From a virus (lineage: Duplodnaviria; Heunggongvirae; Uroviricota; Caudoviricetes): a stretch of DNA of 59,942 bases. Positions 1-41,983 of the stretch are shown in pieces (the stretch's first letter is position 1; every line of letters starts with the position of its first letter). The DNA lies in the IMG/VR virus record IMGVR_UViG_3300045988_167837, one strand, 5' to 3'. The notes under the pieces are model-generated. The model worked only from the letters and a program-made list of their open reading frames with translations, did not search any database and was not told where the DNA came from. The position numbers and the translations under genes are program-made.

Positions 1-108
1 ACCCAGACATCAGCCTGGATGTGCTCCAGCATATGGCCGAGGTGGATTGAGCCGTTAGCGTACGGCAGCGCGCACGTCACCAGAATTTTCTTCGCGACTT
101 GGGTCATA
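1..108 (-). CDS. metG: methionine--tRNA ligase, 5' end only (first 36 codons; gene continues beyond window start)
   Basis: Reverse complement of 1-108 translates to [36 protein letters not shown], the canonical enterobacterial MetG N-terminus; divergent from apbC as in E. coli-type chromosomes. Confidence 0.9.
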
Positions 109-264
109 GTAGGCATTACTTCTTTGTAGTGAAAAGGGGCTTGATAGTAACAAAATGGCCTTATGTCTGCCATGTGATAACAGCATTTCTCATAAATGAT
201 TAAATGTCGTAGCTGGAGTACACTACAAGGCGACAATTGCGCAAATTAAAATAAAGGAGACGGG

Positions 265-1365
265 ATGAGCGAGTCCAAATCGCCGGATGCCCTGAGAGCA
301 ATGGTAGCCGGTACGCTGGCTAATTTTCAGCACCCAACCCTGAAACACAACCTGACTACGCTTAAAGCGTTACACCATGTTGCGTTGATGGATGACACAC
401 TGCATGTCGAACTAATCATGCCTTTCGTGTGGAATAAGCCTTTTGAAGACCTGAAAGAGCAATGTAGTGGTGATCTGCTACGTATCACTGGCGCAAAGGC
501 TATTGACTGGAAGCTGTCGTACAACATTGCCACGCTTAAGCGCGTCAAAAACCAACCAGGCATTAATGGCGTTAAGAACATTATCGCCGTCAGCTCAGGC
601 AAGGGCGGCGTGGGTAAATCCTCCACGGCGGTAAACCTGGCACTGGCGTTGGCTGCTGAAGGTGCGAAAGTTGGTATTTTGGATGCCGATATCTATGGTC
701 CATCAATTCCAACCATGCTGGGCGCGGAAAACCAACGTCCAACCTCACCGGACGGTACTCACATGGCACCTATCATGTCTCATGGCCTGGCAACCAACTC
801 TATTGGTTATCTGGTCACCGACGACAATGCAATGGTGTGGCGTGGACCGATGGCCAGCAAGGCGCTGATGCAGATGTTGCAGGAAACACTGTGGCCTGAT
901 CTGGACTATCTCGTTCTCGATATGCCACCGGGCACTGGTGATATTCAATTGACGCTGGCGCAGAACATTCCTGTAACTGGTGCGGTTGTGGTAACTACGC
1001 CGCAAGACATCGCGCTGATCGATGCGAAGAAAGGCATTGTGATGTTCGAAAAAGTCGAAGTGCCGGTACTGGGTATCGTTGAAAACATGAGTGTGCATAT
1101 TTGCAGTAACTGCGGTCATCACGAGCCAATTTTTGGCACCGGTGGCGCACAGAAACTGGCCGAGAAATACAACACGCAGTTGTTAGGCCAAATGCCACTT
1201 CATATCTCTCTTCGTGAAGATCTGGATAACGGAACACCAACCGTTATTAGTCGTCCAGATAGTGAATTTACGGCTATTTATCGTGACCTCGCAGATCGCG
1301 TTGCTGCCCAAATGTATTGGCAAGGTGAAGTAATACCTGGCGAAATCGCATTCCGCGCAGTGTGA
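265..1365 (+). CDS. apbC: Fe-S cluster carrier ATPase ApbC/Mrp
   Basis: 366-aa ORF, near-identical over its length to remembered E. coli Mrp ([24 protein letters not shown]-loop, CxxC motif ICSNCGHH); SD-like AAGGAG upstream of ATG. Confidence 0.95.
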
Positions 1366-1374
1366 TAAAAAGGT

Positions 1375-1500
1375 GGTGCTTTTGCCGTTACGCACCACCC
1401 CGTCAGTAGCTGAACAGGAGGGACAGCTGATAGAAACAGAAGCCACTGGAGCACCTCAAAAACACCATCATACACTAAATCAGTAAGTTGGCAGCATCAC
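1375..1500 (-). mobile_element. insA: IS1 remnant: left terminal inverted repeat plus first 24 codons of insA (truncated)
   Basis: rc of 1462-1500 is GGTGATGCTGCCAACTTACTGATTTAGTGTATGATGGTG (IS1 terminus); ORF 1183..1446 begins [24 protein letters not shown] (InsA N-terminus) and then runs into antisense apbC sequence, so the IS is truncated about 126 bp in. Confidence 0.65.
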
Positions 1501-1611
1501 CGAGCGCCAGCGGCGAACATATGAGCTTCGGAAATACTAGACATTCTTAACTCCGTTGTTTTCTAGTTGTGGTTATTTTCACAAATAAGAAAAGATAGAA
1601 AACAATTTATT

Positions 1612-1640
1612 TAAGGCCACAACTTATGGCCTTTATTTAT
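1612..1640. terminator. hairpin (AAGGCCA...TGGCCTT) followed by T-rich tract
   Basis: Perfect 7-bp GC-rich inverted repeat with 7-nt loop followed by TATTTATT; no adjacent plus-strand gene to assign it to. Confidence 0.3.
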
Positions 1641-1663
1641 TCATGCCGAAGGATTTGTAGCGT

Positions 1664-2044
1664 CTAATTGCCGGATAAAATGGGGTGAGGTGCTTGCCAG
1701 TAGGCTCCACCGTTCCATGTGAACCCCATGCGAATAAGAGTGTTTATTGCGGCTTTGGTAGACTCCGATTCGACACTGGCTTTACGAAACTCTTGAACCT
1801 CTTTCGCCAACTTGTATGTAATTGTGCAGGGGACGATTGCAGCCCAGCCTTTCTCATGACTGTTAATGACCATCTGGATGTGACCATCCAGAATAGGTTG
1901 ATTAGGCATGTTATTGAAAATGTCTGCCTGTTTTTGAATGTGAAGAAAAAGCCTTGCCAGCGCCATTTGCTCACTACGAGACAAGGGATTATCAAGAGGG
2001 CTTTTTGCAAAAGCTGCTATACGCTGTGCATCAATGCCAAACAT
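1664..2044 (-). CDS. hypothetical protein (126 aa)
   Basis: ORF with start abutting the stop of the upstream ORF 2044..2748 (operon-like arrangement). Confidence 0.4.
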   Translation of the reverse strand: MFGIDAQRIAAFAKSPLDNPLSRSEQMALARLFLHIQKQADIFNNMPNQPILDGHIQMVINSHEKGWAAIVPCTITYKLAKEVQEFRKASVESESTKAAINTLIRMGFTWNGGAYWQAPHPILSGN

Positions 2045-2748
2045 CAGCGCACCTCACCATCTTTATGGCTGGAGTTAACTTCCGTCATTAAATGTCTGAC
2101 GTAATCGACAAGAGAGCCGCCTGGTGGAATCTGGCATTCCTCAACTAACTGGAAGTAGATATCCGCTGCATTACGTGTATTGCTACCCGCGCATATTCTT
2201 TCTTCCCGAAGTGCATGAAGCTCGTTGATCAAACGGTCACACTCTCCGTTACGCTGATCCACAACGGCCTCAAGCTCTGCGACGCGTTCACCTGGCGTCT
2301 TACCTTCTTTGCGTTGGATGGTAACGACGAAATCGCCAATTGCAGGGACGTTGTAATCCAGCTCAAGGTAGTTTTTGGCACCGCTGCGGACGAACTCACC
2401 CGCGAACATGGTGGCGAACATCGCAGAGGCCACTTCTCCGTTGAAAAGTGACTCCAGATCTAACGGAGTCCCGGCAGCAAGAGCCTCTTTTGCTGTATCC
2501 ATTGCATCCATGAACCGATCAAACTCACTAGCGCGCTTTTCCAGGTCTTTCCATTGCTCGCTCCAACGTTTGGCAACGAAGTCTATGAATGTTTTCGCGG
2601 ATTCATCAAAATTCCCCTCAAACTTAACGATGCCTTTATCAATAATGATCTGGCCTACCGCATCCTCTGCATAACCTTTCAATGTAAACTTGAAAGGAAA
2701 ATCGGAATGGCCTGTGACGTTAAAATGCTCTAACTGGAGGTTGCTCAT
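2044..2748 (-). CDS. hypothetical protein (234 aa)
   Basis: Long ORF, no recognisable motif. Confidence 0.5.
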   Translation of the reverse strand: MSNLQLEHFNVTGHSDFPFKFTLKGYAEDAVGQIIIDKGIVKFEGNFDESAKTFIDFVAKRWSEQWKDLEKRASEFDRFMDAMDTAKEALAAGTPLDLESLFNGEVASAMFATMFAGEFVRSGAKNYLELDYNVPAIGDFVVTIQRKEGKTPGERVAELEAVVDQRNGECDRLINELHALREERICAGSNTRNAADIYFQLVEECQIPPGGSLVDYVRHLMTEVNSSHKDGEVR

Positions 2749-2809
2749 GTGTTTTTCTCTTATCGTTTAGTAACTACATTCTTACATAAATTAAGTAAGC
2801 ATTTACCTA

Positions 2810-4495
2810 TCATTTAACGCGTTTGAAAACGTATACGCTGACTGTGATCCCTGTGTCTTCAAACTCGTTGGTAAACGACTTCCCTCTGGCATAAACGTAA
2901 TTATCCATCGTCATCCAGTCCAGTATTGGCGCAGTGCCCGGCAATACTGCTACAAGACGCCCGCCGACTTTCAGATGCCCCAGCGCAGCCAGCGTGTGCT
3001 CTCTATGACGACCAAGCGAGTACGGCGGGTTCATAACGATTTTGTCGAACTGATAACCTGCGTTGTCCTCAGACCACTTTATGAAGTCGCAGCAAATCGT
3101 GTTCGTATACCCTTTTCCACGCAGGATATCAGCGAAGAGAGGTGCGATTTCTATGCAGGTAACATCTTCCAGATCGGCGTCAATATAGGCCAGAAGATCC
3201 CCACGTCCGGCTTGAGGCTCCAACAGCTTCTCACCAGGCTTCAATTCAGTGGCTCTTGCAACGTACTCAGCAATCAAGCGTGGGGTAGGGTAGAACTGGT
3301 GTGATTTTGTATCCGGTATTAAACCGGTAGCCACAATCGTATTTAGCGTATGGCCGATGTCATACGGGAACTGCCAGTGCTTTTTCTCCTGCACGCCGCC
3401 AATGAAGCTCAGTGTGCGCTCAAGCTCTTCCACCTGCGACTTCTGGAGAGCTGAATCAGAGAAGTACCATACACCTTTGTCTTTGCTCAATCGCCCGTCA
3501 CGAAGCGCAGTGCGAACCGGCACGGAGATCGTCTTCTGGATTAAACCGAACTGCTTTGGTGCCCGTGTTTTTGGCGCAGTTCGGCATGGCGCGGGGATTG
3601 CAGCAGGCATACTGTAAGCCAGCACCTCATTCAACTTCCAGGCCACGTCAGGATGTATTTCAAAGTGAACGTTGCCGTTCTTGAACATCTTCACGCGCAT
3701 CAGATTTCCATCGACGTTCATCCAGTCACCGGTCTGGCAGTCGTTTGCCCGATACGCAGCTGATAGCACCTCAGCAGTGCGGTTGATGGTAATAAATTCT
3801 TTGTGCGCGAAGAAATGAAGCAAGACACGCAGATCGTCGATGTAGTCCTCTTTGCGATAGTTCACGCTAACGCTGTCCCGCCAGAAATCAGAAATGCAGT
3901 CAGCGATTATCAGCCGCTCGCTGAAACCATTTGTCTTATTTGTCTTGTGCACAGGACTCAGCGCCTTAAACAAGCCATACACGCGCTCAGAGAGATATTT
4001 GTGCCTGTCATTCAGCAAATTAAGCATCGTGGGTATGACCGTTTCTGCTTTGAACTCCGGTACACCAACGAACTCTTTAACCTTCATCTGGTAGCCGGTT
4101 CTGTCAGTTTTGATGACTTCCTGTTTGCCCTCTATAAACTGCTCGCGCCACTCATCTCGACGGGAAGCTGGCATGATCAGCAAAACGTTAGTCATGTCCG
4201 TGACCTTCCTCCAGTACTCGGCCCAAATATTCTGTTTCACCCATTCCAGATCGACTTTATCCAACCAACCTCGATTTAAACGCGAGCGATCTTCATCTGG
4301 TCGATGGTTTAGTTTCAGCAGGCGATTAATCATGTTGTGGCGTTCGTCGCCATAAACGAAGTTGTGAACCTGATACATGAAGGCGATCTCTTTCTCGCAC
4401 TCGGCCACAATTTCGTGGATAACGTTCATTTCCTGACGATAATCGATAGCAGTGTTTGAGCTGGCATCGTCGATGATGGAAAGGGCTGTATTCAT
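2810..4495 (-). CDS. putative DNA methyltransferase with large N-terminal domain of unknown function (561 aa)
   Basis: C-terminal region has SAM-MTase-like motifs (LEPQAGRGDLL then IVMNPPY motif IV, typical of N6-adenine/N4-cytosine MTases); N-terminal about 380 aa without recognisable motifs. Confidence 0.6.
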   Translation of the reverse strand: MNTALSIIDDASSNTAIDYRQEMNVIHEIVAECEKEIAFMYQVHNFVYGDERHNMINRLLKLNHRPDEDRSRLNRGWLDKVDLEWVKQNIWAEYWRKVTDMTNVLLIMPASRRDEWREQFIEGKQEVIKTDRTGYQMKVKEFVGVPEFKAETVIPTMLNLLNDRHKYLSERVYGLFKALSPVHKTNKTNGFSERLIIADCISDFWRDSVSVNYRKEDYIDDLRVLLHFFAHKEFITINRTAEVLSAAYRANDCQTGDWMNVDGNLMRVKMFKNGNVHFEIHPDVAWKLNEVLAYSMPAAIPAPCRTAPKTRAPKQFGLIQKTISVPVRTALRDGRLSKDKGVWYFSDSALQKSQVEELERTLSFIGGVQEKKHWQFPYDIGHTLNTIVATGLIPDTKSHQFYPTPRLIAEYVARATELKPGEKLLEPQAGRGDLLAYIDADLEDVTCIEIAPLFADILRGKGYTNTICCDFIKWSEDNAGYQFDKIVMNPPYSLGRHREHTLAALGHLKVGGRLVAVLPGTAPILDWMTMDNYVYARGKSFTNEFEDTGITVSVYVFKRVK

Positions 4496-4636
4496 AATTA
4501 CACCATTAAATAATTTGTTTTCTGATTGGTGTAATTATCGCAAACTTGAAAAGGCATAAAAGCTGCATTCATAGGCGTTACAGCAGATTTAAGGCGTAAA
4601 AATGGGGGCTGTCGCCCCCTGTCGACTGGTGCTGTA

Positions 4637-5203
4637 TTAGAGTGCGTATTGCGTTTTGTGCGGCTGCTTATTCAAGTCATGGCGATGCGTGAGCTCCCGC
4701 ATCATGTCTTCAAGGCGACTCTTTGTGTCGTCGAGCTGGTCGGCCATTGCACCTAAAAGCTGGCGAACGGCCATCGGACCGTCGCTGTTTAGTGATGGCA
4801 TTTTAGAACCTGCTTTAGAAGACATAAGGTTGATTGCAGACATCAACATCGTTAGAGAGGATTTAAGCCCGGCAATTTCACGATCTTTGCTGGCAATAAT
4901 CGTCTCACTTTTGTTACCGTCATCAGTTTCTTGAGTCTCGCTCACCATATCCAAAGTCGCTTGCAACTTATCAGCTCTCTCTTTTTCAGCAAGGTAATGA
5001 ACACCGAAATGGTGTGCCAAAGCTACAATCTGAGTTGGCTCTTCAAAGGTGGAATTAAAATTAAGTATTGTAAACAGTCTCTCAAATATGGAAACGTCTT
5101 CTATTCCTCGAAGAATGGCTAACATTTTGACCAGTTCATTAGCATCCATTTCTTCGAATAAGGCGTTTTGTTCATCAGCTATCGCTTTGCATTTCTTGCA
5201 CAT
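4637..5203 (-). CDS. hypothetical protein (188 aa)
   Basis: ORF preceded (on coding strand) by conserved palindromic motif and GGAAAAACAC-ATG start context shared with other genes here. Confidence 0.5.
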   Translation of the reverse strand: MCKKCKAIADEQNALFEEMDANELVKMLAILRGIEDVSIFERLFTILNFNSTFEEPTQIVALAHHFGVHYLAEKERADKLQATLDMVSETQETDDGNKSETIIASKDREIAGLKSSLTMLMSAINLMSSKAGSKMPSLNSDGPMAVRQLLGAMADQLDDTKSRLEDMMRELTHRHDLNKQPHKTQYAL

Positions 5204-5221
5204 GTGTTTTTCCTAATGCTT

Positions 5222-5235
5222 AAACAAGTTGTTTT
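5222..5235 (-). promoter_or_regulatory. conserved palindromic motif AAACAAGTTGTTTT (copy 1), about 30 nt upstream of a start codon
   Basis: Near-perfect palindrome AAACAA-N-TTGTTT recurring upstream of several minus-strand genes. Confidence 0.3.
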
Positions 5236-5500
5236 CTTATTGTCTTTATTGTGATGTGGCATAAAAGGGGAGCAAGCTAAACGTAAAGGTGCAAACTCTC
5301 TATTTCGGTCAACGAAACACAAGGGCCATTTGGCCCTTGTCATTAACACTTTGCTTTACGAACTAACGGATAAGCGAAGTAGATCGCCAAACCAATGAGG
5401 ACGCCATCAGAAATGACAGACATCATCTTTCCCGTAAAATCCACCAACACCGCCATCACCAGAAGAGCAATGACGATCACAAGCCGGAATCTCTCAAGCA

Positions 5501-5926
5501 TTAGAGATAAGCATCCAGTGACAACTGAAGCGCCTGGGCGATCTTTTTCAGTGCCTGCTCTTCTTGTTCACCAATGCCGTCCTGATCGGCAATATCAAGG
5601 CACAGACACAGAACATCGACCGCCTCTGGAGTACCCGCAATATCAGACAGCTCACGAATAGCCTGTGCATTAGCAGAACGAGGGGACGCTTCGTAACGAG
5701 CACGGATATTGGCGCTCATTTGGGCAATTTCACCAGCAAACGGAGAAAACGCAGGCAGAGCTGCAATTGTCTTCTCAAGAATGGCAATTTCTTTTGCGTC
5801 ACATGTGCCGTCGGCATAGGAGATCATGTACGCGCCCCACACGGTGGCCTCAACCGCATCACGGTTCTCCATTTTTTTGACTTCGATAACAGCTTTACGA
5901 GTTTTCTTTTTGAAGAAACCTAACAT
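5501..5926 (-). CDS. hypothetical protein, possibly TerB-like (141 aa)
   Basis: ORF with acidic helical C-terminal region; weak resemblance to TerB/DjlA-N-type domains from memory only. Confidence 0.4.
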   Translation of the reverse strand: MLGFFKKKTRKAVIEVKKMENRDAVEATVWGAYMISYADGTCDAKEIAILEKTIAALPAFSPFAGEIAQMSANIRARYEASPRSANAQAIRELSDIAGTPEAVDVLCLCLDIADQDGIGEQEEQALKKIAQALQLSLDAYL

Positions 5927-5950
5927 GTGCTTTCCTTTTATTATTTGTCA

Positions 5951-5964
5951 AAACAAGTTGTTTT
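5951..5964 (-). promoter_or_regulatory. conserved palindromic motif AAACAAGTTGTTTT (copy 2)
   Basis: Same motif as at 5222, again just upstream of a minus-strand start codon (5926). Confidence 0.3.
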
Positions 5965-6019
5965 CTAATTACATAAATTGCTTACGCAGAGATGGTCAAT
6001 GCATATGCACTAACAGCCG

Positions 6020-6208
6020 TCAGAAATAACCAAGTACCGAACCAACTGGAAAAACAAAAATCCCAACTACACGAGCCAAGGTCATGCCAGCCTGAAACTG
6101 GAGATCGCCAGAGCAAACAAGTTTTATAATGTTCGATACCCAACCGGCGGCCATAAGGGCAAGAATTGCCAGCCAAATTTTTCCAAAGTGATTTGAAAAC
6201 CAGTTCAT
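6020..6208 (-). CDS. small hydrophobic protein (62 aa), putative membrane protein
   Basis: Short ORF rich in hydrophobic residues (WLAILALMAAGWV...VVGIFVFPVGSVLGYF). Confidence 0.3.
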   Translation of the reverse strand: MNWFSNHFGKIWLAILALMAAGWVSNIIKLVCSGDLQFQAGMTLARVVGIFVFPVGSVLGYF

Positions 6209-6217
6209 ACAACCGCC

Positions 6218-6712
6218 TTAGTCACAGCATGATCCTGAGTAACTGGATGAACTTGAGGTATCGCATCCACCGCCATCCCATCCAGAGTGACAGGACGCTC
6301 CACTGGAGTGGTGGTAATTGTCGTCGACGAAGGTGTGGTGATGGATGAATCCGGCATCAAAAGGCTCTGACCGGCTGGAACGGCTACCGTCGCCAGTGAA
6401 ACTATAATGAGAACGTAGGCCATTGGTTTCAGCCTCTTTCTTTGAAAATTTTCCATTCGAACTGTCCTTGTTGTTTTTCTCCTTCACTAAAGGCCGTGCA
6501 TTTTTCGCTTCGCGTGAAGAACCAGAGGCAACAATCGCCCCCACGTTCGCAACAACTGACGCTTGATTATCTAAACGTTCATTCAGCAACCGAACGGTAG
6601 TCTCTAGTTCATCAAGGCGTGACATAACACGACCGCTAAATAATTCGGCCAAAATTTGACGTAAAGAACGAGGACGTTTAGTTACAGAAGTGAAATAGGT
6701 TTGACGTGCCAT
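6218..6712 (-). CDS. hypothetical protein (164 aa; 3' portion overlaps alternative ORF 6205..6456 encoding a putative signal-peptide protein)
   Basis: Longest ORF in region; C-terminal half is low-complexity (Ser/Gly/Cys-rich) so the true gene may end earlier with 6205..6456 a separate small secreted protein. Confidence 0.3.
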   Translation of the reverse strand: MARQTYFTSVTKRPRSLRQILAELFSGRVMSRLDELETTVRLLNERLDNQASVVANVGAIVASGSSREAKNARPLVKEKNNKDSSNGKFSKKEAETNGLRSHYSFTGDGSRSSRSEPFDAGFIHHHTFVDDNYHHSSGASCHSGWDGGGCDTSSSSSYSGSCCD

Positions 6713-6860
6713 GTGGACTCCATCCAGTGTCAGAAAGAGTTGCGGCTGGCGATTGCCAGCCGCCTTTCTCGTTCCATCCTGGAACTGTGTCTTACCGACA
6801 CATTGTCATCCTGACGCCGATAAGATACATGATTTAAAATGATAGGTAAACACTTACTTA

Positions 6861-7451
6861 CTATTTATTATAAACAAAACCAATATCTTTCTTGTGAGGC
6901 ATATCTGCTGCTGAAAAAGCTGCGATCTTCGCGAGTCGATCACATATTTCATTTTCACGATGCCCGGCGTGACCTTTAACCCACTTCCAGCGAACATTAT
7001 GTCGACTTGCGGCCTCATCCAGACGCTTCCACAGATCAACATTCTTTACCGGTTTTTTGTCAGAAGTCATCCATCCATTGCGTTTCCACCATTTCATCCA
7101 CTGTGTCATGCCGTTTTTCAGATACTGGCTATCAGAGTGCAAAATAACGTTGCATGGATATTTCAAACGCTCCAGCCCGATAAGTGCCCCCATCATCTCC
7201 ATGCGGTTATTGGTGGTGCTATGAAAACCATCTGAGAACTCGCGTTCCTCACCACGATACTGGAGAACGATACCGTAACCGCCCGGGCCACCCGGATTTT
7301 TAAGGCAAGAGCCATCACTAAAGATTTTCACGGTTTTAAGCTGGGGATTGAACTCTACGACAGGCGTTGTGGGATTGGTGCGGGGGGAATTTTTGTTTTT
7401 GGCTTTTTTGCGAGTTTTTGCTTGCGATCGGGCTGGTGTCTTCGTCGTCAT
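6861..7451 (-). CDS. rnhA: ribonuclease H (RNase HI-like) with basic N-terminal extension
   Basis: RNase H core motifs IFSDGSC...NPGGPGGYG...ERE...HSDSQY...GHAGHRENE; start set at internal Met (MTTKTPARS) of the 224-aa ORF. Confidence 0.8.
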
Positions 7452-7535
7452 ATAAACTCCTGAATCAAGCGCCGCGCCGATTTTTCCTCGCGCGTGCGCA
7501 CACGCGTGCGTGTTAATAATTATTAAAATAAACAA

Positions 7536-8033
7536 ATTACTTCCCAGAACAGGTTTTTATAAACCTGAACTGAACGAACGAAGTGAGTGAAGTTCACCTC
7601 GAACGAAGTGAGAGGTTGTCTTTTCAGGTAATACTCTCCCAGGGAGGTGAGTATAAAAATCTCTCACCAACCTGGTCGTTTCATAACCTGAAAAGTTATG
7701 GTCTAAGTCTACTGCCAGCTTAGACTTGGGAAGTTATGGATGACAGCACCCCAGAACCGAGATCTTCCCACACTTTATGAAGGGGAGTACTGGATTCAAC
7801 CTCTCGAAACACCCCAGACTCGACAATCATAAAGTGACCCTTGTCTCTGCTCACTTTGGTTCCCCCTTCCCCGACACCTAAACGGCACCAGTTCTACGCT
7901 GGTAGTGAGCTTTTTTAAACCTGACGCCAGTGACGCTTACCCCCACCCATCAGGTCGAGTCTCCAGTCTACGACTGGAAACTATCAGATCTTAGCACTTA
8001 CAATTCACTTTATGAATAGTTTGTACTTATCTA
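7536..8033. other. about 500-bp ORF-free region with internal direct and inverted repeats (candidate structured RNA or cis-acting site)
   Basis: No ORF of 60 aa or more; repeated GAACGAAGTGAG, AAGTTATGG and several short stem-loops. Confidence 0.3.
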
Positions 8034-8288
8034 TCATTGTGATTGATTATTTTCTCTACCATGTAGTTGAACATTCAAGGCAAACACCTCATTGATCAAC
8101 TCACCTAAAAGCTGTTCAACAAGTTCGCGATGCTCGCCAAGATGCAAGCACTTAATTGCCCATTCGTACAAGTTGAAAGCCTGCTCACGATCTTTCATCA
8201 TTTCACGAGCCTGGGCCAGAAAATCGCTCTCTACGAGCGCAACGACATTAGTCGGGTATGACATGTTGGTTTCCTTAAAGTGGTTCAT
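8034..8288 (-). CDS. hypothetical protein (84 aa)
   Basis: Short ORF, no motif. Confidence 0.3.
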   Translation of the reverse strand: MNHFKETNMSYPTNVVALVESDFLAQAREMMKDREQAFNLYEWAIKCLHLGEHRELVEQLLGELINEVFALNVQLHGRENNQSQ

Positions 8289-8449
8289 AAAATCGATTTT
8301 AAAGCGTCTGGGAAGGGGTTCTAGTGGATTCTGTTGTGATGTTCAGGTCTGGAGTCTCTGATACAAAACAGCCTGCTTCCGTATATTAATAATTAATATG
8401 TAGTTATTTATATATACAGAAGCAGGCTAATTACAGACGCCAGAACAAA

Positions 8450-9043
8450 CTAAGCAGCCTTCTTTGATGGTCTTTTTTTCCTGATCACATTCGCAGGATC
8501 ATACCCTCCCAGACTTTTCATGACGTCCAAAGGGATCTTGCTTATAGAGTGCCCAGCGTCCTGACAGAATCCTCGAAAAACAACGAGCATACTGCCACCT
8601 GGGTTGATGTTTACTTCTACCTGACCCAGATTTACGTCAGGCTCGACAAACGCTACGCGGCCACCAGACAGAATAATCGTCTCATTCGCACACTCTGTTG
8701 CACGCTCATACCACTTTGTATCTAGGGATTGAGGAATTAGCATCACTGTTGTAACTCCGCGAGCCTGCTCACGTATAGCCGCATCAATCCAGGGGTAGAT
8801 TTTGGAGTAGGGTGGATTGAGGAAGGCAATTGTACCTGGCTGTCCCCATTCAGATTTCAAAGCATCACGCTCAACGCCTATGAAATTAGGCAGCTTTGCA
8901 TTGTCCTTGTTGCAGGCAACGTCAACATCAAATGTCACTCCAAGATAACGTTGAATGGCAGAAAACAGCCAGTCAGGTGTTCTCCAGAGGTCACGAAGAG
9001 AGTTGTCACGCTTTCGCTGTTTGATTTTTTCGGCTGCAATCAT
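8450..9043 (-). CDS. dam: phage-type DNA N6-adenine methyltransferase (Dam-like)
   Basis: 197 aa with WRTPDWLF N-terminal motif and FLNPPY catalytic motif typical of small phage Dam-family MTases. Confidence 0.75.
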   Translation of the reverse strand: MIAAEKIKQRKRDNSLRDLWRTPDWLFSAIQRYLGVTFDVDVACNKDNAKLPNFIGVERDALKSEWGQPGTIAFLNPPYSKIYPWIDAAIREQARGVTTVMLIPQSLDTKWYERATECANETIILSGGRVAFVEPDVNLGQVEVNINPGGSMLVVFRGFCQDAGHSISKIPLDVMKSLGGYDPANVIRKKRPSKKAA

Positions 9044-9105
9044 CTTCTTTCTCGATAGGTAAGTAAATACCTATTTTTGCATTTGATTTTATGTCTGGCA
9101 ATCAA

Positions 9106-9226: not shown

Positions 9227-10036
9227 TCATCCAATAGTGTACTCCGCGACAAACTTCTTAACGATCGGTGATTCTTCGTTCAATGTTAGATTTCCACCGT
9301 CTCTAACGGCAATTCCTGTCGCTGGAAATACAGCCATCATTTGCCCAGCCTGAGTTGACGCAGTGTTAAGCGGATACGGTTTTTCTGGATTGCTCATTAA
9401 AGCAATCTTAATACTATTACTTGTAGCCTTCTTTTCTGTGAGAAGGTGTCTCATGGAAATTACCGTGTAAACACTAATATCTGGACCTCCGCTAAACCAA
9501 TTAAGAAGGTTTAATATCTTATCCTTTGCTTTGACAGGCGCGTTATCGTAAGCGTCTAAGAAAATATCTTTTTCTAAGCCCGCTTTATTGAAAAACGAAT
9601 CATCTTTATCACTTAAAGTAAAACGAGGACCTCTTGCAGTACGAGCTTTTTTATTTGTATTGCTATCATTTGACTGTTGAACTTTTAATTCATCATTAAC
9701 CTCAACACACTCTTCAACCTCAATAAATCCCAATTGTTCTGGCTCGTTTTCGGCAGCTTCAACACTTTCAGCGTTAATTACGTTTATAGGCTCATGCGCT
9801 AACTCCAACTCATTTAAAGCAGAGCTGAAATCACCTGCTTTTTCTTCATTGAAAAGTTCTTCGGCAACATCATCAGAACTCATGGCTACGCCAGCATCTA
9901 GGCCGAGCAGCAGATCGTCAATATCATCAGTATTTTCAACCTGTGCAGCTTTTTTTACTGGTTCATCAAGTGATTGCAACATGGCTGTCAGCTCGTCCAG
10001 ATCATCATTTGTCATTACATTTTCAACCGAACTCAT
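9227..10036 (-). CDS. highly acidic protein of unknown function (269 aa)
   Basis: N-terminal about 110 aa extremely D/E-rich; no catalytic motif. Confidence 0.5.
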   Translation of the reverse strand: MSSVENVMTNDDLDELTAMLQSLDEPVKKAAQVENTDDIDDLLLGLDAGVAMSSDDVAEELFNEEKAGDFSSALNELELAHEPINVINAESVEAAENEPEQLGFIEVEECVEVNDELKVQQSNDSNTNKKARTARGPRFTLSDKDDSFFNKAGLEKDIFLDAYDNAPVKAKDKILNLLNWFSGGPDISVYTVISMRHLLTEKKATSNSIKIALMSNPEKPYPLNTASTQAGQMMAVFPATGIAVRDGGNLTLNEESPIVKKFVAEYTIG

Positions 10037-11242: not shown

Positions 11243-11887
11243 CTAATGAACGGTCACTCGGCCACAGAACCGGTTTTCTATCTTTTCTACAGCGTTATCT
11301 AGCATTCTCATCACTGATCTGGCTCTTGCTTCAACCGTGCGATATCGGTTGGAAACGACGAAGGTTTGCAGATCTCCCCTTTGCGGATGCAGGTGAATTT
11401 TTGTCAGTTCCCCGCACATCAACGCATCAATACGAGCGACATACAGACGGTCTAATGATGCTCGTTGTGATCGCAAGTAATCTCGCTCTGAGAGAGCGAC
11501 TCCCGGGCGTAAGCCAGCAATGGCGTTAAAGTTTGAAATAGCAGTTTTGTGGCAAAACTTTTCGATATCGAGGGCTAACTCAATACACCGATCTTCATTT
11601 GTATGGCCGACCAAATCCAACGTGTAGGCCATAACATCAGCAGGTGTGCGATCGATAACAAAGCCTTCAACACCACGCGTAAGTAGCTCTATATGCTTTG
11701 CTATTTCCATTTGAATCTGAAGCCGCTCATATAGAGGCATAGAATCACCTACTCGAACACCGAGGCGGCTCATCAAACTTCCGACACCAGCATCCACGTA
11801 AGGGATTCCGTAATGTTTGTCGATATATTTAGCCAGGGTTGTTTTCCCACTGCCCTGAGCACCAGTGATCCCAATCCGGTAATCCAT
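11243..11887 (-). CDS. P-loop NTPase, putative (deoxy)nucleotide kinase
   Basis: Walker A GAQGSGKTT at N-terminus; position within the nucleotide-metabolism cluster. Confidence 0.5.
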   Translation of the reverse strand: MDYRIGITGAQGSGKTTLAKYIDKHYGIPYVDAGVGSLMSRLGVRVGDSMPLYERLQIQMEIAKHIELLTRGVEGFVIDRTPADVMAYTLDLVGHTNEDRCIELALDIEKFCHKTAISNFNAIAGLRPGVALSERDYLRSQRASLDRLYVARIDALMCGELTKIHLHPQRGDLQTFVVSNRYRTVEARARSVMRMLDNAVEKIENRFCGRVTVH

Positions 11888-12363
11888 TACGACCTTCTGT
11901 ATACGATCTGCGAAAAGCCAGGCTCTTCCTCGCTGGCTCGTTGGGTATAAGCTGTTTCAACAGGCACAAAGCCTAAGTTACGCATCATGCTTGCCGGGAA
12001 GAATGCATCGGCGTTTGGTACATCAATGCCGATGTGGGAGAGCCAAATCTCTTCAACATGCGGCATGAATAGCGAGTAAATTTGTTCCCCGCCAATCACC
12101 CACACAGGCTCTGGTAATCGCAACACATCATCCACACCAGCAGGGTAGAATCCATTTGGTACAAAGCCATGAGAGCGCGTCAAAACGAGGTTATGACGCT
12201 CTGGAAGAGGGCGTTTGAGACTTTCCATCGTTTTACGCCCCATAACGACAGTGGCGTTTTTGGTGAGTCTCTTAAATAGCTTCAGATCGGTAGAACAACG
12301 CCAGGGGAGTTCATTCGCTATGCCGATCTCATAGTTACGGCCAACAGCAGCGATCATCTTCAT
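11887..12363 (-). CDS. folA: dihydrofolate reductase
   Basis: 158 aa; DHFR signature MIAAVGRNYEIGIANELPW...VVMGRKT...VIGGEQIY. Confidence 0.85.
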   Translation of the reverse strand: MKMIAAVGRNYEIGIANELPWRCSTDLKLFKRLTKNATVVMGRKTMESLKRPLPERHNLVLTRSHGFVPNGFYPAGVDDVLRLPEPVWVIGGEQIYSLFMPHVEEIWLSHIGIDVPNADAFFPASMMRNLGFVPVETAYTQRASEEEPGFSQIVYRRS

Positions 12364-33527: not shown

Positions 33528-35956
33528 TAGGCTTCTCCCTGAACTTCCGCCACTTTCACGCCTAATATTTGTGCAATCAAACCATCAGCCTTCTGCTCTA
33601 GATTGATAATGTCAGTTGCTACTTCTTCAAGACTACGTAATGGCTTATGCAGATAGAAATACTTATTGAAGCTGATTTCATAGCCAATTTTTACCGTATC
33701 TAGGTTTATCCATGCTTCATCGACATGAGGCTTCACTTCATCTAGGAAGTACTGGTAAATGCTTTGCTTTAATGGAACAGATTCTGTATCTCGCAGGTCT
33801 GAATTGGTCTCGTAAGTGATATACTCGCCTTTTTTACCGCCTTCTGCTGAAGGAACGGGGTAATAACCAAAATCTGGCAAGTCAGCGACTTCACACTCAT
33901 AGCGCTCCAGCAGGTCGTTTAATTTATCACCCGTTAATTTAACTACCTTTTTAACCACTTTCTTGGCGGTTTCGTCATACCAGCTCACCGCGTGAAGAAT
34001 GGCATTTTTCTCAGGTGCTGAAAGCTTAATAGCATGGGCTTTTAGCGATTTATCAACTTGGGTTTTAAAGCTATTGAAGTCATCAAATTCAATGCTACCG
34101 ATGTCAGCCATCAGCGTTTGTGCAGTTTCAAGCAATGCTTTTAGCGCCAGCCAGTGTTTCACATCAAGCAGTTTGGCCTTAGCCTTAGCATTGAGACTGA
34201 TGTCGTTATCTTCACACCAAGAAAGAATGTCTTTCTCGATGGATTTTAAGAAGCTCTTTTTCTGATCTGACCCGTAGCCAGTTTTTTCGTAAACACGTTC
34301 GCCGTGCTCTGCGTACACGTACTCCATCACTTCACTAAGTTGCTTATCAAAACGCAGTGGGGCTATGGCATCTTGAGTAAACTTGGCTTTGCGGCGATCT
34401 GGGCGCTCGATAGTGACTTTGTAGTAGCCAAAATCGTCATTGCTGAATACCTTACTGGCGATGCCAACAGGATCATTGTTTGCATCCAGTGCTCTTTCAA
34501 CATCCTTACACGCGAGGTAAGTATCGGTAATTTCCGTGATGTGCTCAGGCGCAAATTCGCAGTTTTTGTTACCTAAGTTCTTGCGCAACTTACGGTAGAG
34601 CAAGCTGGCATCAATTAATTGCACCTTACCTTTACGCGCCTCAGGTTTATTGTTGCTCAACACCCAAATGTAAGTGGTAATGCCAGTGTTATAGAACAGG
34701 TTATTAGGTAACTGAACGATGGCATCTAGCATGTCGTTTTCAATGATGAAGCGACGAATATTACTTTCACCACCGCCCGCATCTCCGGTAAAGAGCGATG
34801 AGCCGTTATGAACAGAGGCAATCCGGCTGCCTAATGGACTTACGCTCGGATCTTTCATCTTGTTGACCATCTCCATTAAGAAAAGCAGCTGGCCATCACT
34901 CGAACGTGGCGTGGCATCCACCACTTCGAGATTTCCCCAATAGTCTTTCAGGCTAACCTTAAAACGCGGGTCAATCACATCACTGCCGTCTTTAATGTAC
35001 TTCTGTTCAGACGCCCAACTCTTACCGTATGGCGGGTTAGACAACATAAAGTCAAAGCGTGAAGCCGCAAACTCGTCGGTAGACAAGGTTGAGCCTACCT
35101 TGATGTTCTCAGGGTTGTTACCTTTGATCATCATGTCCGATTTACAAATCGCGTAGGTCTCGTCATTGATCTCTTTGCCGTAAAGGTAAATATCTCGGCT
35201 GTCGTTCGGGTATTTCTCTTCAATGAAGTTTTGAGATTCAGTGAGCATACCACCGCTACCACACGCAGGGTCGTAAACGGTCATGGTCAATGGTAGCTGC
35301 TCTTTCACTGGGTCAAAAACCAAGTGTGTCATCAGCTCAATCACTTCCCTAGGTGTAAAGTGCTCACCGGCTTCTTCGTTATTCTCCTCGTTGAACTTAC
35401 GGATCAACTCTTCGAACACGTACCCCATACCCAGGTTAGTAAGGGCTGGCATCTTGTTGCCATCTGGGTCTTCGATCGTTTCATGAGTTAAGTTGATGTA
35501 AGGGGAAACAAACTTTTCGACGACATCAAGAAGGACTTGCTTTGAGGCCATGTGACGAATTTGCAACTTGAGGTTAAAGCATTCAATGATTTCTTTAACA
35601 TTATCGCTAAAGCCAAGCAGGTACTCTTCAAAGTTGGCGAGTAATATCTGTTGGTTATTCGTTGCGGTGTTGAACAGGGATTTCAGGGTCCATTTAGATG
35701 TATTGTAAAAAACATAACCACTAGCCGCCTTCAATGGTTCATCATCAAGCTCCGTGGCTTGCATCTCTTCTTTTTGGAACTTGACCTCTTCAAGCACGGC
35801 TTCTTTGGTGGGTTCAAGTAACGTATCTAAACGTCGTAATACCACCATAGGTAAAATCACATCGCGGTACTTACCGCGAACGTACACATCACGTAAACAG
35901 TCGTCGGCAATGTTCCATATAAATGAGATGAGCTTGTTATGTACACTATGATCCAT
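33527..35956 (-). CDS. hsdM: type I restriction-modification methyltransferase subunit (unusually long, about 810 aa)
   Basis: N6-adenine MTase motifs DPACGSGGML (motif I) and LSNPPYG (motif IV); start set at MDHSV with AGGAAAAG RBS (ORF track 33527..35992). Confidence 0.85.
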   Translation of the reverse strand: MDHSVHNKLISFIWNIADDCLRDVYVRGKYRDVILPMVVLRRLDTLLEPTKEAVLEEVKFQKEEMQATELDDEPLKAASGYVFYNTSKWTLKSLFNTATNNQQILLANFEEYLLGFSDNVKEIIECFNLKLQIRHMASKQVLLDVVEKFVSPYINLTHETIEDPDGNKMPALTNLGMGYVFEELIRKFNEENNEEAGEHFTPREVIELMTHLVFDPVKEQLPLTMTVYDPACGSGGMLTESQNFIEEKYPNDSRDIYLYGKEINDETYAICKSDMMIKGNNPENIKVGSTLSTDEFAASRFDFMLSNPPYGKSWASEQKYIKDGSDVIDPRFKVSLKDYWGNLEVVDATPRSSDGQLLFLMEMVNKMKDPSVSPLGSRIASVHNGSSLFTGDAGGGESNIRRFIIENDMLDAIVQLPNNLFYNTGITTYIWVLSNNKPEARKGKVQLIDASLLYRKLRKNLGNKNCEFAPEHITEITDTYLACKDVERALDANNDPVGIASKVFSNDDFGYYKVTIERPDRRKAKFTQDAIAPLRFDKQLSEVMEYVYAEHGERVYEKTGYGSDQKKSFLKSIEKDILSWCEDNDISLNAKAKAKLLDVKHWLALKALLETAQTLMADIGSIEFDDFNSFKTQVDKSLKAHAIKLSAPEKNAILHAVSWYDETAKKVVKKVVKLTGDKLNDLLERYECEVADLPDFGYYPVPSAEGGKKGEYITYETNSDLRDTESVPLKQSIYQYFLDEVKPHVDEAWINLDTVKIGYEISFNKYFYLHKPLRSLEEVATDIINLEQKADGLIAQILGVKVAEVQGEA

Positions 35957-36114
35957 TTTCTTTTCCTGTTCAGTGTTGGTTGCACCCCACAAAGTTGCTG
36001 CAACGGCTTCACTATAAATTTAAAATTCTGTTCTTTCTGTAACGCCTAAATGGCCTCTACATCGTTCGATTAACTTGTTCTACCCGGCGCTAGATTTAAG
36101 TTTATGACACCATA

Positions 36115-36163
36115 AAGTGAATCGCCACAGGTTTAATAGACTGAATCGCCACAGGTTTAACAG
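36115..36163. repeat. tandem direct repeat (2 copies, about 24 bp) in hsdM upstream region
   Basis: GTGAATCGCCACAGGTTTAATAGAC / TGAATCGCCACAGGTTTAACAGAC. Confidence 0.4.
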
Positions 36164-36188
36164 ACACCTCAGAGTCATTTAAGATGAC

Positions 36189-36380
36189 TTAAAGAGAGGT
36201 GTACAGCTCGGTATTCAGACCAGTCCACTGACGGCCAACGCCGACAACTTCACCGATACCTTTGTCTTCACCCAATTTGTTTACTTTGATGCCAACGTAC
36301 CCAGGCTCAACACGATCGCAGCCTGTAAGACCCATTGTGCAAACAGCAGCCACGATCACTGCCAGTAAACCTTTCTTCAT
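36189..36380 (-). CDS. small lipoprotein (63 aa)
   Basis: Signal peptide with lipobox LTGC. Confidence 0.5.
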   Translation of the reverse strand: MKKGLLAVIVAAVCTMGLTGCDRVEPGYVGIKVNKLGEDKGIGEVVGVGRQWTGLNTELYTSL

Positions 36381-36383
36381 TAC

Positions 36384-36584
36384 TTACTTCCCCTTCGAAT
36401 TAATTAGTGACTTCAGAAAGTTACGACCAACATTAAAGCCGATAACAGGAGCGCCAAAAGCAACAATGATTCCAAGCATTACGGCAATATCGCTTTTAGC
36501 CGAGATCAGCGACGGAACCAGCAAACAGTAGATGAAAACTACAGATATACCTGTAGCCACTGCCATCAGATAGAGTTTGATCAT
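36384..36584 (-). CDS. small hydrophobic membrane protein (66 aa)
   Basis: Two predicted hydrophobic helices; CATGTGTTTTCC start context shared with other genes. Confidence 0.4.
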   Translation of the reverse strand: MIKLYLMAVATGISVVFIYCLLVPSLISAKSDIAVMLGIIVAFGAPVIGFNVGRNFLKSLINSKGK

Positions 36585-36650
36585 GTGTTTTCCTATGTGG
36601 CTATTGTGTGTAGATGGTGAGTAAGTGTTTATATATTTTCAAGGTATAAA

Positions 36651-36668
36651 GGCGTCCATTCGGACGCC
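36651..36668 (-). terminator. hairpin downstream of recA-like gene
   Basis: GGCGTCC-ATTC-GGACGCC immediately after recA stop. Confidence 0.4.
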
Positions 36669-36674
36669 TGAAAA

Positions 36675-39014
36675 TTAATCTTCTAATTCATCTGTCGGTG
36701 ATGTCTTCTCGCGCCTGTCATCTATTGCCTGTAACGCAGCAATGATTTCAGCTAATGGCTTCTCCCGGTACATCTCGACGATCTGTGATTTGGTGTATTT
36801 CTTCTCGCCAATTTCCACACGCCCGCTGGCGCTCTTGGGCAGGTATCCTTCCTCCAGCATGTATTCAACCAGAGACTCGACGACGTCCAGCCCGCGAGTC
36901 GGGTCGAAGTAGAATTTCCATGAGCATTTGCCAAACGGAGGCGCGACTTTGTTTTTAATGCACTCGGCGCCAACGTCCTGTCCGATCTTCTCTTTGCCAT
37001 CCTTCATGACGGATGCACCCAGACGGATGCGCACCGACGCGTAGAACTTCGGAGAGTCGCCACCCGGAGACGTAGTCGGATCGCCAAACATCACACCAAT
37101 TTTGGTACGCACCTGGTTCAAGAAGATGATGCACGCGTTGTACTTACGCGCCCAAAGCGCCAGAGTAGGGAAGTTCGCACTTGTCGCGCGCGCCAGCGCC
37201 GTGTTGTCGTTCATGTTCAGCTGATCTTTGTCTTTCGCAGTGCCTTCTGCCATCTTGTCGAACTTCTCAGCCTTCGAGTTCGGAACCATCGACGCCAGAG
37301 AGTCGGCTACGATGCAGATAGGGGCTGTTTCCGGAATAAGCTCTTCGTCGCGCACCAGCTTGAGGATTGTGCCGATCAGCTCTACGGAGTCTTCGAAGGT
37401 ATCCGGCTGTTTGTAGACCCACTGACCGTCATCCTCATCTGCGTTCAGGCCATTGGCTACAGCCAGGCCAACGTCAAAACTGTTTTCATGATCGAGGAAT
37501 ACCGCCAGACCATCTTGTTTTTGAGCGGAGATCATCGCTGCTGTTGCAAGGAATGTGTTGTGGCTGATAATCCCGTTAGACCAGAAAGAGTGTGTTTCCG
37601 GCATCGCTACGTCGAACGTTGGTGCTTCACCTTCCTCAATAGCCACGACTTCGTCGTAGAACAAGTTAGAGCCAATTACCGCTGCCAGTTGTGCAAACAG
37701 ATGCTCGTTAAAACGATTCTTTCTGCCAATGAAGGAGACATAGATTTCTCGCAGTTTGTCTATTCCGACACGATCGCCGCGGCCAATAACGTGGTCTACC
37801 AGAGCGTAGTCTTCACGGGTGGTCTTGGTGAGCGACTCGTAGAGTGATTTCACTAAGCCGCTGATGTGCGGAACATAGCCTGAGTAAGTGCGGTCAAAAC
37901 CAATGTCCCGTTTGGTTGCCACTGATAAACGTGCCGGAGATTCGAAACCAATCGTTGACAGAAAAAGGTCGTAATTAGAGCCACTGAATGACAGCCGGTA
38001 ATATGTATTTTCATAACCCGCGACGTGTTTTTCAGAGATAGTTGACGTAATCCCCAGATTCAGGAGCATGAGGCGAATTTGCTGTAGCAGCAGCCCACTC
38101 GCGCTCACAACCTCAATGCAGCGACCATCATTGACGTGGCATTCCAGCTCAAAGTAGCCGCGAAGGAATGCAATTTGAGCCTCGCTATTGGCGCGACGCA
38201 CACTCAACGGAACCTGCTTGCCAGCAGCTTTCTCATACTCCAGACCATATTCTTTAAAAAGCAGCGAACGCACCTCTTTGCTAAACAGCACATGGTCTTC
38301 CGAGCCGTTATGTTTTCTCGTAACTGGCATCTTGTCTGATACCAGCGAAATGAGGCGGTAGTACTCATCCTTGATGAAAGGATCTGTGTTAGAAAAATTC
38401 ACTGAATTTTCAGAGGCGACGTATCCGTCAGCAATTAAATAGCCCATCAGTTTTGCGATATTGGCATCCAGGTGCTGATCGCCGAATTGATGTGTGCCAA
38501 CCATTGAAGGAATCGTGTCGCCTACACTGATTTTTTCAGCATGTCGCCAGACGACATTACCTAAGTCGTCAACCACACGGATTGGGTGACGGAACGTAGC
38601 CTCGATATAACCGCCTGATGCCAGCTTAATACGCTTGAATTTGCGACGGTTGTTCCATGTCAGGTGTGAGGTCTTCTCTATCACGCCATTTTCATTGATG
38701 AGTCCAACGTTATGCTCTACATCGCGAGTAGTGCATGTCGCTTTGTACCCTTCAATCTCAAACAACTCTTTCACTGTTACCATTCCACGCTCCGTCAGCA
38801 GCATGGTGTCTGCGGTAACACATTTCCCTGCACTTGGAGGACCGAATACTTCGACGATACGACCACATGGGAAGCCGCCATCGTAACGACCAGAAATAGC
38901 TTTGTTTAACGGTGGAAAGCCTGTATCAATCCAATGAGTTACTTTCTGAATTTCGTCGTTGCTACCGATTTTCTTTTTCAGAGCAAGTGCCAGTGCGGAT
39001 TTTCCTTTTGCCAT
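36675..39014 (-). CDS. recA: RecA-family recombinase containing an in-frame intein
   Basis: Exteins align with remembered RecA (GRIVEVFGPPSAGK / TFLATAAM..., IIFLNQVRTKIGVMFGDPTTSPGGDSPKFYASVR, KNKVAPPF); 422-aa insertion between Lys64 and Thr of the Walker A motif. Confidence 0.85.
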   Translation of the reverse strand: MAKGKSALALALKKKIGSNDEIQKVTHWIDTGFPPLNKAISGRYDGGFPCGRIVEVFGPPSAGKCVTADTMLLTERGMVTVKELFEIEGYKATCTTRDVEHNVGLINENGVIEKTSHLTWNNRRKFKRIKLASGGYIEATFRHPIRVVDDLGNVVWRHAEKISVGDTIPSMVGTHQFGDQHLDANIAKLMGYLIADGYVASENSVNFSNTDPFIKDEYYRLISLVSDKMPVTRKHNGSEDHVLFSKEVRSLLFKEYGLEYEKAAGKQVPLSVRRANSEAQIAFLRGYFELECHVNDGRCIEVVSASGLLLQQIRLMLLNLGITSTISEKHVAGYENTYYRLSFSGSNYDLFLSTIGFESPARLSVATKRDIGFDRTYSGYVPHISGLVKSLYESLTKTTREDYALVDHVIGRGDRVGIDKLREIYVSFIGRKNRFNEHLFAQLAAVIGSNLFYDEVVAIEEGEAPTFDVAMPETHSFWSNGIISHNTFLATAAMISAQKQDGLAVFLDHENSFDVGLAVANGLNADEDDGQWVYKQPDTFEDSVELIGTILKLVRDEELIPETAPICIVADSLASMVPNSKAEKFDKMAEGTAKDKDQLNMNDNTALARATSANFPTLALWARKYNACIIFLNQVRTKIGVMFGDPTTSPGGDSPKFYASVRIRLGASVMKDGKEKIGQDVGAECIKNKVAPPFGKCSWKFYFDPTRGLDVVESLVEYMLEEGYLPKSASGRVEIGEKKYTKSQIVEMYREKPLAEIIAALQAIDDRREKTSPTDELED
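37557..38822 (-). other. intein (422 aa) with LAGLIDADG homing-endonuclease domain, inserted in RecA P-loop
   Basis: Starts with Cys (codon 38820-38822; CVTADTMLL), has TFRHP block-B-like motif, LMGYLIADGYV and FLRGYFELECHV motifs, ends ...SNGIISHN (Asn codon 37557-37559) followed by Thr. Confidence 0.8.
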
Positions 39015-39016
39015 GA

Positions 39017-39289
39017 TCAGGCTCCTTTTGTTTCGTTGATTCGTTTTAAAGCGGCGGATTCATCGAATACAATCGCATCGTGGTTAAGGAGTCTGGATAC
39101 ACGAGCGAGGATTTTTACGACCTGCTCGCTGACTAATCCAAACTCGCGATCTGTCGCTTTCATTCCGGCAGCGCCTAGAATTGACGGCAGTGCGATGACA
39201 GCGTACTCACCGTGATAAAAGACAATCTCTTTTGCCAGTTGGGCAGGGGTGGTTGTAGCGCCATTAATAATTGATTTAAGCATTAGCAA
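39017..39289 (-). CDS. hypothetical protein (90 aa)
   Basis: ORF between flap-endonuclease and recA genes. Confidence 0.35.
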   Translation of the reverse strand: MLMLKSIINGATTTPAQLAKEIVFYHGEYAVIALPSILGAAGMKATDREFGLVSEQVVKILARVSRLLNHDAIVFDESAALKRINETKGA

Positions 39290-40278: not shown

Positions 40279-40287
40279 GTAATGGGA

Positions 40288-41316: not shown

Positions 41317-41433
41317 GTGTTTCTCCTTGTTGTGATTTGGCCGATGGCGCTATGCGCGTTGGGCTTTCGTTCATTCGTGGCTCTTTCGAGCTGTTAAATG
41401 ATAGATCAGTACTTACTTATTATCTATCAAAAA

Positions 41434-41889: not shown

Positions 41890-41962
41890 TTTGTATTGAT
41901 TATATCATTGTAATGATGAGGCAATGAGCTTGAAGATAGGGGGGGTGAGGGGATAAGGGAAA

Positions 41963-41983
41963 ACATGGCCTTTATGGCCATGT
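41963..41983 (-). terminator. hairpin after dnaE C-terminal gene
   Basis: ACATGGCC-TTTA-TGGCCATGT with T-rich flank on the minus strand. Confidence 0.45.

Follow-up and report, generated by a model that had tools for sequence, protein, structure and literature searches.

The 59,942-nucleotide stretch of viral DNA analysed here (the window; IMG/VR record IMGVR_UViG_3300045988_167837) is, to judge from nucleotide identity, part of an approximately 113-kb Escherichia coli phage-plasmid of the SSU5 super-community (pECOH89 / pLF82-Cyrano / pSLy3-type). Just beyond the 3′ end of its apbC gene lies a 127-base-pair (bp) stub of the insertion sequence (IS) IS1. This stub is very probably the scar of a two-step internal deletion in such a phage-plasmid, one in which the metG-apbC gene pair is of long standing. 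The first-pass annotation of the window had instead proposed that the stub joins chromosomal core genes to phage-plasmid DNA.

The affiliation of the window is evident in both of the stretches compared. Positions 1-3500 are 100% identical by BLAST to the E. coli plasmid pSJC33-2 (NZ_CP080257.1, 113,446 bp), as are positions 35000-53405, and the somewhat longer interval 35000-55327 displays 99.8-100% identity to the E. coli plasmids that match the stretch. Sixteen complete E. coli genomes contain positions 1-3500 at a coverage of at least 95%, and the full-length match is located on a plasmid in every one of them (107-116 kb, with 218 kb in one record). When positions 1-3500 and 35000-55327 are compared with non-mobilizable plasmids of 107-116 kb, the identity is 96-100%, as befits a member of this backbone. 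Positions 1570-3500 are 98.2% identical to the genome of the packaged phage Cyrano, and positions 1570-2100 are 97.7-98.7% identical to relatives that carry no IS1. The SSU5-like phage-plasmid backbone has been described for pECOH89 and for pLF82 (phage Cyrano) (PMC3999498; PMC9928086), and such elements have been assigned to the pSLy3 group of the SSU5 super-community (PMC12429562). Production of virions by the relative Cyrano was documented by quantitative PCR and electron microscopy (PMC9928086).

A BLAST comparison of IS1 with the window returned a single match, in which IS1 nucleotides 1-130 correspond to positions 1501-1372 with one mismatch. In a base-by-base alignment, exact identity extends over IS1 nucleotides 1-127 (positions 1501-1375; 127 of 127 bases), and a match of this length is far past chance (E ~1e-64). 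The IS1 reference sequence was verified against the annotated IS1 of phage P1 (AF234172, 22626-23393), where insA starts 56 nucleotides from the end, and the match in the window begins at the outermost base of that annotated element. A functional IS1 family element is 768 bp long, is bounded by two terminal repeats of ~23 bp and is flanked by a target-site duplication of 8-9 bp. The near-identity to the reference from the terminal base onward speaks for descent from IS1. Of the two ~23-bp repeats only the insA-proximal one is present (positions 1479-1501), and the insA/insB′ frames, which yield InsAB′ by frameshift, are incomplete. As the remnant lacks insB, the second repeat and a target duplication, it cannot transpose. 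BLAST detected no further IS1 sequence in the 59.9-kb window, and neither a second IS1 copy nor an IS1-flanked composite was found in the window or in six of the seven stub-bearing plasmids of PLSDB. The fragment itself is ordinary and already known, the same bases of pSJC33-2 being labelled by RefSeq (PGAP) as ‘IS1 family transposase, incomplete, missing C-terminus’. The first-pass annotation had described a terminal repeat and 24 insA codons followed by an abrupt loss of identity, which is correct within one or two bases, and had placed the apbC stop codon within about 10 bp of IS1, where the measured gap (from 1365, the end of the stop codon) is 9 bp. Its fragment of 126 bp ending at 1500 is replaced by one of 127 bp ending at 1501, of which the inner 5 bp (1375-1379) are common to IS1 and the backbone.

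The scar is inherited. A 401-bp segment that covers both junctions aligns in one piece, at 98.8-100% identity, with eight complete E. coli genomes and with CP057685, and the nine stub-bearing records (pSJC33-2, CP022167, CP015915, CP041426, CP058356, CP031136, CP195468, JBSWAS010000002 and CP057685) stem from isolates that include chicken, pig, human and giant panda sources.

On the left side of the scar, backbone identity to the IS1-free pECOH89, pNT1F31 and Cyrano extends over positions 1-1379, that is, to 14 bp past the apbC stop codon. In pECOH89, pNT1F31-113kb, the MARGA_4 plasmid and Cyrano, all of which are IS1-free, the same 14 bp follow apbC and humD comes next. The backbone and IS1 agree at seven of the eight bases of GG[T/C]GGTGC, at whose variable position (1374) the window retains the backbone T. 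A microhomology of at least 5 bp would occur at a random junction with a chance of ~0.005, as obtained both analytically and by sampling.

On the right side, positions 1502-1544 translate on the minus strand to MSSISEAHMFAAGA, which are the first 14 residues of a 213-amino-acid RelA/SpoT-type HD protein (Pfam HD_4 match and NCBIfam spoT_relA partial match), which places the IS1 insertion in codon 15 of the HD gene, behind the first base. Compared with pECOH89, the window misses 5,595 bp (positions 3406-9000 of the pECOH89 locus, L003). The pECOH89 genes of this interval that are absent here are humD, seven small variable genes of the ea-like region (one with a ClpX-type zinc finger, the others without Pfam matches) and the HD gene from codon 15 onward (199 codons). 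The same interval measures 5.75 and 6.95 kb in two other relatives that carry the HD gene. The layouts of the variable region in pNT1F31, MARGA_4 and Cyrano are different and lack the HD gene, and these elements match the window only from position 1570/1572.

Table 1 Features of the scar, its surroundings and the far end of the window
Feature	Position	Strand	Remarks
metG 5′ end (35 codons + 2 nucleotides)	1-107	minus	pSJC33-2 annotation, NCBIfam NF001100
metG-apbC divergent intergenic region	108-264		captured with both genes; single BLAST piece from metG stop to apbC stop against chromosomal loci
apbC, 366 amino acids, Fe-S cluster carrier ATPase	265-1365	plus	NCBIfam NF008669
87-amino-acid chimeric open reading frame (ORF)	1183-1446	minus	InsA residues 1-24 + antisense-apbC frame; from the ORF list
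Left half of apbC/humD intergenic hairpin terminator	1366-1379		A-run + GGTGGTGC; last backbone bases before the deletion
5-bp microhomology GGTGC	1375-1379		common to backbone and IS1 nucleotides 123-127; putative deletion crossover point
IS1 remnant, nucleotides 1-127	1375-1501	minus	insA-end terminal inverted repeat, outermost base at 1501; insB and other repeat absent
insA codons 1-24	1446-1375	minus	within IS1 remnant
HD-domain gene start (14 codons + 1 nucleotide)	1502-1544	minus	identical to pECOH89 L003 9001-9043
Backbone intergenic region, HD gene start to Eaa-like gene	1545-1663		98.7% identical to pECOH89
Eaa-like gene	1664-2044	minus	conserved phage-plasmid gene; pSJC33-2 and Cyrano annotations
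Ead/Ea22-like gene	2044-2748	minus	conserved phage-plasmid gene; pSJC33-2 and Cyrano annotations
DUF4942 methyltransferase-like gene	2810-4495	minus	conserved phage-plasmid gene; pSJC33-2 and Cyrano annotations
Four tRNA genes (Ser-TGA, Thr-TGT, Tyr-GTA, Asn-GTT)	54493-55146	minus	adjoin the transposon insertion point
Tn3-family transposon	55328-59942		high GC, 60-66%; absent at this site from pSJC33-2 and other closest plasmids
TnAs1-like transposase	55361-58327		in Tn3-family transposon
Serine resolvase	58331-58891		in Tn3-family transposon; followed by an EAL-domain fragment

The two-step history that we favor would begin with the transposition of a complete IS1 into codon 15 of the HD gene, at the edge of the variable ea-like region, and the insA-proximal end of that IS1 would be preserved as the junction 1501/1502. 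In the second step, one microhomology-mediated deletion, independent of both RecA and the transposase and proceeding by slippage or illegitimate recombination, would have had its endpoints at IS1 nucleotides 123-127/128 and in the left arm of the apbC/humD terminator hairpin, which share GGTGC. Such a deletion would have taken IS1 nucleotides 128-768 (641 bp) together with ~5.6-7 kb of the element, presumably comprising humD, ~8 small genes of the variable region and all that follows codon 14 in the HD gene.

Several observations weigh against this history. Neither PLSDB nor the 5,426 complete E. coli genomes yielded an intermediate in which a full IS1 interrupts the HD gene, and a search with the 401-bp junction query returned no match limited to IS1 and the right flank, as coverage falls from 100% to ~50%. 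With no such intermediate at hand, the order of the two steps is one that we infer. The same holds for the recombination mechanism and for the precise set of deleted genes, whereas both junction sequences, the IS1-free layout of the relatives, the plasmid location and the presence of the scar in nine records are observed directly. The target-site duplication at 1501/1502, which would prove transposition, would have been lost with the deletion. Furthermore, since the corresponding interval is 5.6, 5.75 and 6.95 kb long in three relatives, the size of the deletion depends on the layout of the ancestor.

The manner in which the scar reached its present carriers may also differ from simple descent. 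The IS1 fragment and its right flank could have been imported by homologous recombination from a scarred phage-plasmid variant and could thus have spread horizontally. Among the stub-bearing plasmids, whose sizes are 109-114 kb, sequence differences reach 1% over 3.5 kb, and phage-plasmids recombine frequently according to a published account (PMC10879196). We consider this spread possible but unlikely, and it would alter only how the scar was disseminated, not how it originated.

The position of the break within IS1 bears on another alternative, namely that a canonical transposase-mediated adjacent deletion, or a series of IS-mediated events, removed humD and the variable region and that the IS was truncated separately at a later time. 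IS1 adjacent deletions are well documented, and the segment deleted here lay directly beside the IS. The canonical form of this process, however, keeps the IS complete and creates the new joint at its terminus, whereas the break examined here is inside IS1, at nucleotide 127/128, and the sole intact IS1 terminus remains joined to the HD-gene site of the original insertion. As this alternative also requires two deletions where one microhomology-mediated event suffices, we find it very improbable.

The origin of metG and apbC is central to one of the two remaining alternatives, both of which had been raised in the first-pass annotation. Together with humD, which encodes an S24 peptidase (NCBIfam HumD equivalog), these genes are an old and conserved accessory module of the phage-plasmid lineage and not a piece of the host chromosome. 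In pECOH89, pNT1F31-113kb, the MARGA_4 plasmid, pTLYA-2, the 2014C-3307 plasmid and Cyrano, metG-apbC occupies the same position in the backbone and is followed by the convergent humD, with no IS1. Because apbC is at the same place in these IS1-free relatives and leads into humD, IS1 did not join the two genes to the element, contrary to the first-pass annotation, which had itself held that related genomes with this apbC 3′ flank and no IS1 would speak against its reading. The complete metG, which encodes 677 amino acids, continues to the left of the window (the pSJC33-2 copy is at L001 10074-12107, and the gene pair as a whole at L001 10074-13365), and in pSJC33-2 the DNA on its far side is again that of the phage-plasmid.

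Both metG and apbC are true equivalogs of their families, and the copies are not chromosomal. ApbC scores 759.3 bits against NCBIfam NF008669 (cutoff 348) over residues 2-366 of 366, and MetG scores 1019.8 bits against NF001100 (cutoff 587) over residues 4-677, which include the C-terminal tRNA-binding domain. The window holding only 107 nucleotides of metG, the latter value was obtained with the full pSJC33-2 gene, which is 100% identical. ApbC is found at an amino acid identity of at least 99% on 189 PLSDB plasmids, essentially all from Escherichia or Shigella, and is 100% identical in four phage records (Cyrano, two records of CMS-2020a, and PhiR41_1); it is absent from phage SSU5 itself. 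Every host carries a chromosomal copy in addition: a match is present in all 5,426 genomes, and the best match reaches only 80-90% identity in 5,574 records, the level at which E. coli chromosomes resemble the gene pair of the window.

For a broader comparison, the metG-apbC loci of 80 species were sampled, with one genome each. The highest identity of the block to any chromosomal locus is 88.8%, and the homology to the chromosomes breaks off precisely at the stop codons of metG and apbC. The plasmid copies group as a single clade in a neighbour-joining tree, with all of the sampled Escherichia species together as their sister group; identity is 87-88% between the plasmid copies and these species and 91-93.5% among the species themselves. 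A recent capture of metG-apbC from the host chromosome is therefore rejected, and the data point to an old, single capture that has been kept functional. Among five phage-plasmids, apbC displays 0 nonsynonymous against up to 31 synonymous changes and metG 1-5 nonsynonymous against 29-94 synonymous changes, a pattern indicative of strong purifying selection on both genes. The Cyrano apbC (CYRAN_99) is listed for strain LF82 among the genes whose expression in lysogeny is ~9-fold above the local background (PMC9928086). The presence of apbC in such phage-plasmids is mentioned in one sentence of a published study (PMC12429562), and a search of the literature on MetRS in phage-plasmids found nothing relevant. 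The same tree contained an unrelated irregularity: the metG-apbC locus of CP170191.1 (L008), a record named as Enterobacter hormaechei strain B56, falls within the E. coli clade beside Shigella flexneri, and this suggests that its species label in the genome collection is wrong.

These results bear directly on the proposal that the phage-plasmid integrated into, or fused with, a chromosome beside apbC by IS1 cointegration and that the stub marks the junction. IS1 does form cointegrates, and metG and apbC resemble housekeeping genes and adjoin each other on enterobacterial chromosomes. The full-length matches, however, are without exception on plasmids, the copy is only 87-88% identical to the chromosomal copies of Escherichia, and the module is found at the same place in IS1-free relatives and in packaged phage genomes. 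Moreover, a cointegrate needs two directly repeated complete copies of IS1, whereas a single 127-bp remnant is present, with no second IS1 in the window or in six of the seven stub-bearing PLSDB plasmids. A fusion with the chromosome is thus close to inconceivable. The first-pass annotation was right that the DNA to the right of the stub belongs to a phage-plasmid and that the stub is a rearrangement scar, but the scar is one of internal deletion and not of integration or of a joint between chromosome and phage-plasmid. Its other suggestion, a mis-join of two contigs at a collapsed IS1 repeat, has next to no chance of being true. Most E. coli genomes do contain several IS1 copies (median of 10 matching places per genome), and mis-joins caused by repeats are a general hazard. 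The identical 401-bp junction, however, is present in nine closed plasmids that were assembled independently, in different laboratories and from different hosts; six of the seven stub-bearing PLSDB records lack any further IS1 sequence at which an assembly could have collapsed; the fragment is just 127 bp long with unique DNA on either side; and its two flanks are parts of one phage-plasmid backbone, arranged in the right order and orientation.

The left endpoint of the deletion coincides with a hairpin. In its intact form, GGTGGTGC-AAT-GCACCACC, this hairpin has a 9-bp stem and is followed by U5 on the minus strand (-15.8 kcal/mol, z = -2.4), features that mark it as a putative intrinsic terminator between the convergent apbC and humD. 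At the joint (positions 1372-1399), the backbone arm GGTGGTGC can pair with the IS1-derived GCACCACC in a hybrid hairpin with an 8-bp stem and a 12-nucleotide loop, again followed by U5 on the minus strand. The IS1 arm of this hairpin is IS1’s own GGTGGTGC (nucleotides 103-110), and the hairpin is located just downstream of the truncated insA. Its folding energy is unremarkable (z = -1.3), and a simple terminator scan did not flag it because the 12-nucleotide loop exceeds the limit of the scan. Within the stub, a promoter-like site (1494-1467, minus strand) faces into the 3′ end of apbC, and one may speculate that the hybrid hairpin serves as a makeshift terminator that stops transcripts from the insA promoter. 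The 87-amino-acid chimeric ORF that spans the joint is probably meaningless.

A functional role for the entire arrangement can also be imagined. The metG-apbC pair might be an auxiliary module, for instance a second MetRS and Fe-S carrier that buffers or replaces host functions in stress, under toxin attack or in the lytic cycle; the inherited, IS1-linked loss of humD and of the HD hydrolase gene might then be adaptive and not neutral, and the hairpin at the joint might shield apbC from antisense transcription driven by the insA promoter. Taken as a whole, this combination is improbable.

The main value of the two-step deletion history is a correction: housekeeping-looking genes are no marker of a chromosome here, and consequently the window should be reported neither as an integration event nor as a chimeric assembly. 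The scar also provides a base-resolution record of an IS remnant that arose, as we propose, through deletion at a microhomology, within the variable region of a phage-plasmid family that is clinically widespread, and it shows that the plasmid can persist without humD, the ea-like genes and the HD-domain gene. A mildly notable by-product is the lineage-wide occurrence of MetRS and ApbC, which is present in database annotations and has received one passing mention in the literature (PMC12429562); some 190 Escherichia/Shigella phage-plasmids and four phage genomes carry a full-length MetRS and an ApbC paralogue.

The interval between apbC/humD and the Eaa-like gene (positions 1380-1663 of the window, 3406-9162 of L003, and 9793-9978 and 5551-9094 of loci L002 and L005, respectively) is a hypervariable cargo hotspot of the family. 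Its cargo ranges from 0 to ~10 small genes (ea22-like, toprim, ClpX zinc-finger, DUF551 and HD hydrolase), and its insertion sequences vary by member, with IS1 here, IS100 in pTLYA-2, and IS5- and TnpB-type elements in others. Elsewhere in the backbone, a dihydrofolate reductase gene (11887-12363) is predicted to encode the trimethoprim-resistant DfrA51 (NCBIfam exception model, 338.6 bits with a cutoff of 322). Together with thymidylate synthase and nrdAB it makes up a block of nucleotide-metabolism genes, and it agrees with a recent description of phage-plasmid dfrA50/dfrA51 genes (PMC12217456). At the far end of the window, the junction of the Tn3-family transposon at ~55.3 kb was not found in complete E. 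coli genomes or in PLSDB.

The scar and its surroundings can be set against four known systems. The stub resembles the truncated IS1 remnants that are known from enterobacterial plasmids and phages. Relative to the complete 768-bp IS1 of phage P1, the remnant is identical over nucleotides 1-127, which cover the repeat, the promoter region of insA and the start of this gene, but 127 of the 768 bp are all that the window keeps, insB, the other inverted repeat and a target duplication being absent. The chromosomal metG-mrp/apbC locus of Escherichia and other Enterobacteriaceae has the same divergent gene pair and intergenic region, and its ApbC is 94-95% identical in amino acid sequence; the nucleotide identity to the plasmid copy is only 87-88%, however, and the plasmid copies branch outside the sampled Escherichia. 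With pECOH89 (NC_023916), pLF82 / phage Cyrano (OV696614) and the pSLy3 group, the window has the backbone, the gene order and the metG-apbC module in common (96-98% nucleotide identity over the module and 98% over positions 1570-3500), but it differs from the pECOH89/Cyrano type in that the IS1 stub takes the place of humD, the variable ea-like genes and the HD-domain gene. The closest likeness is to pSJC33-2 and the eight other stub-bearing plasmids, the junction of which is identical to that of the window, while the window differs from pSJC33-2 in carrying an extra Tn3-family (TnAs1-like) transposon from ~55.3 kb onward.

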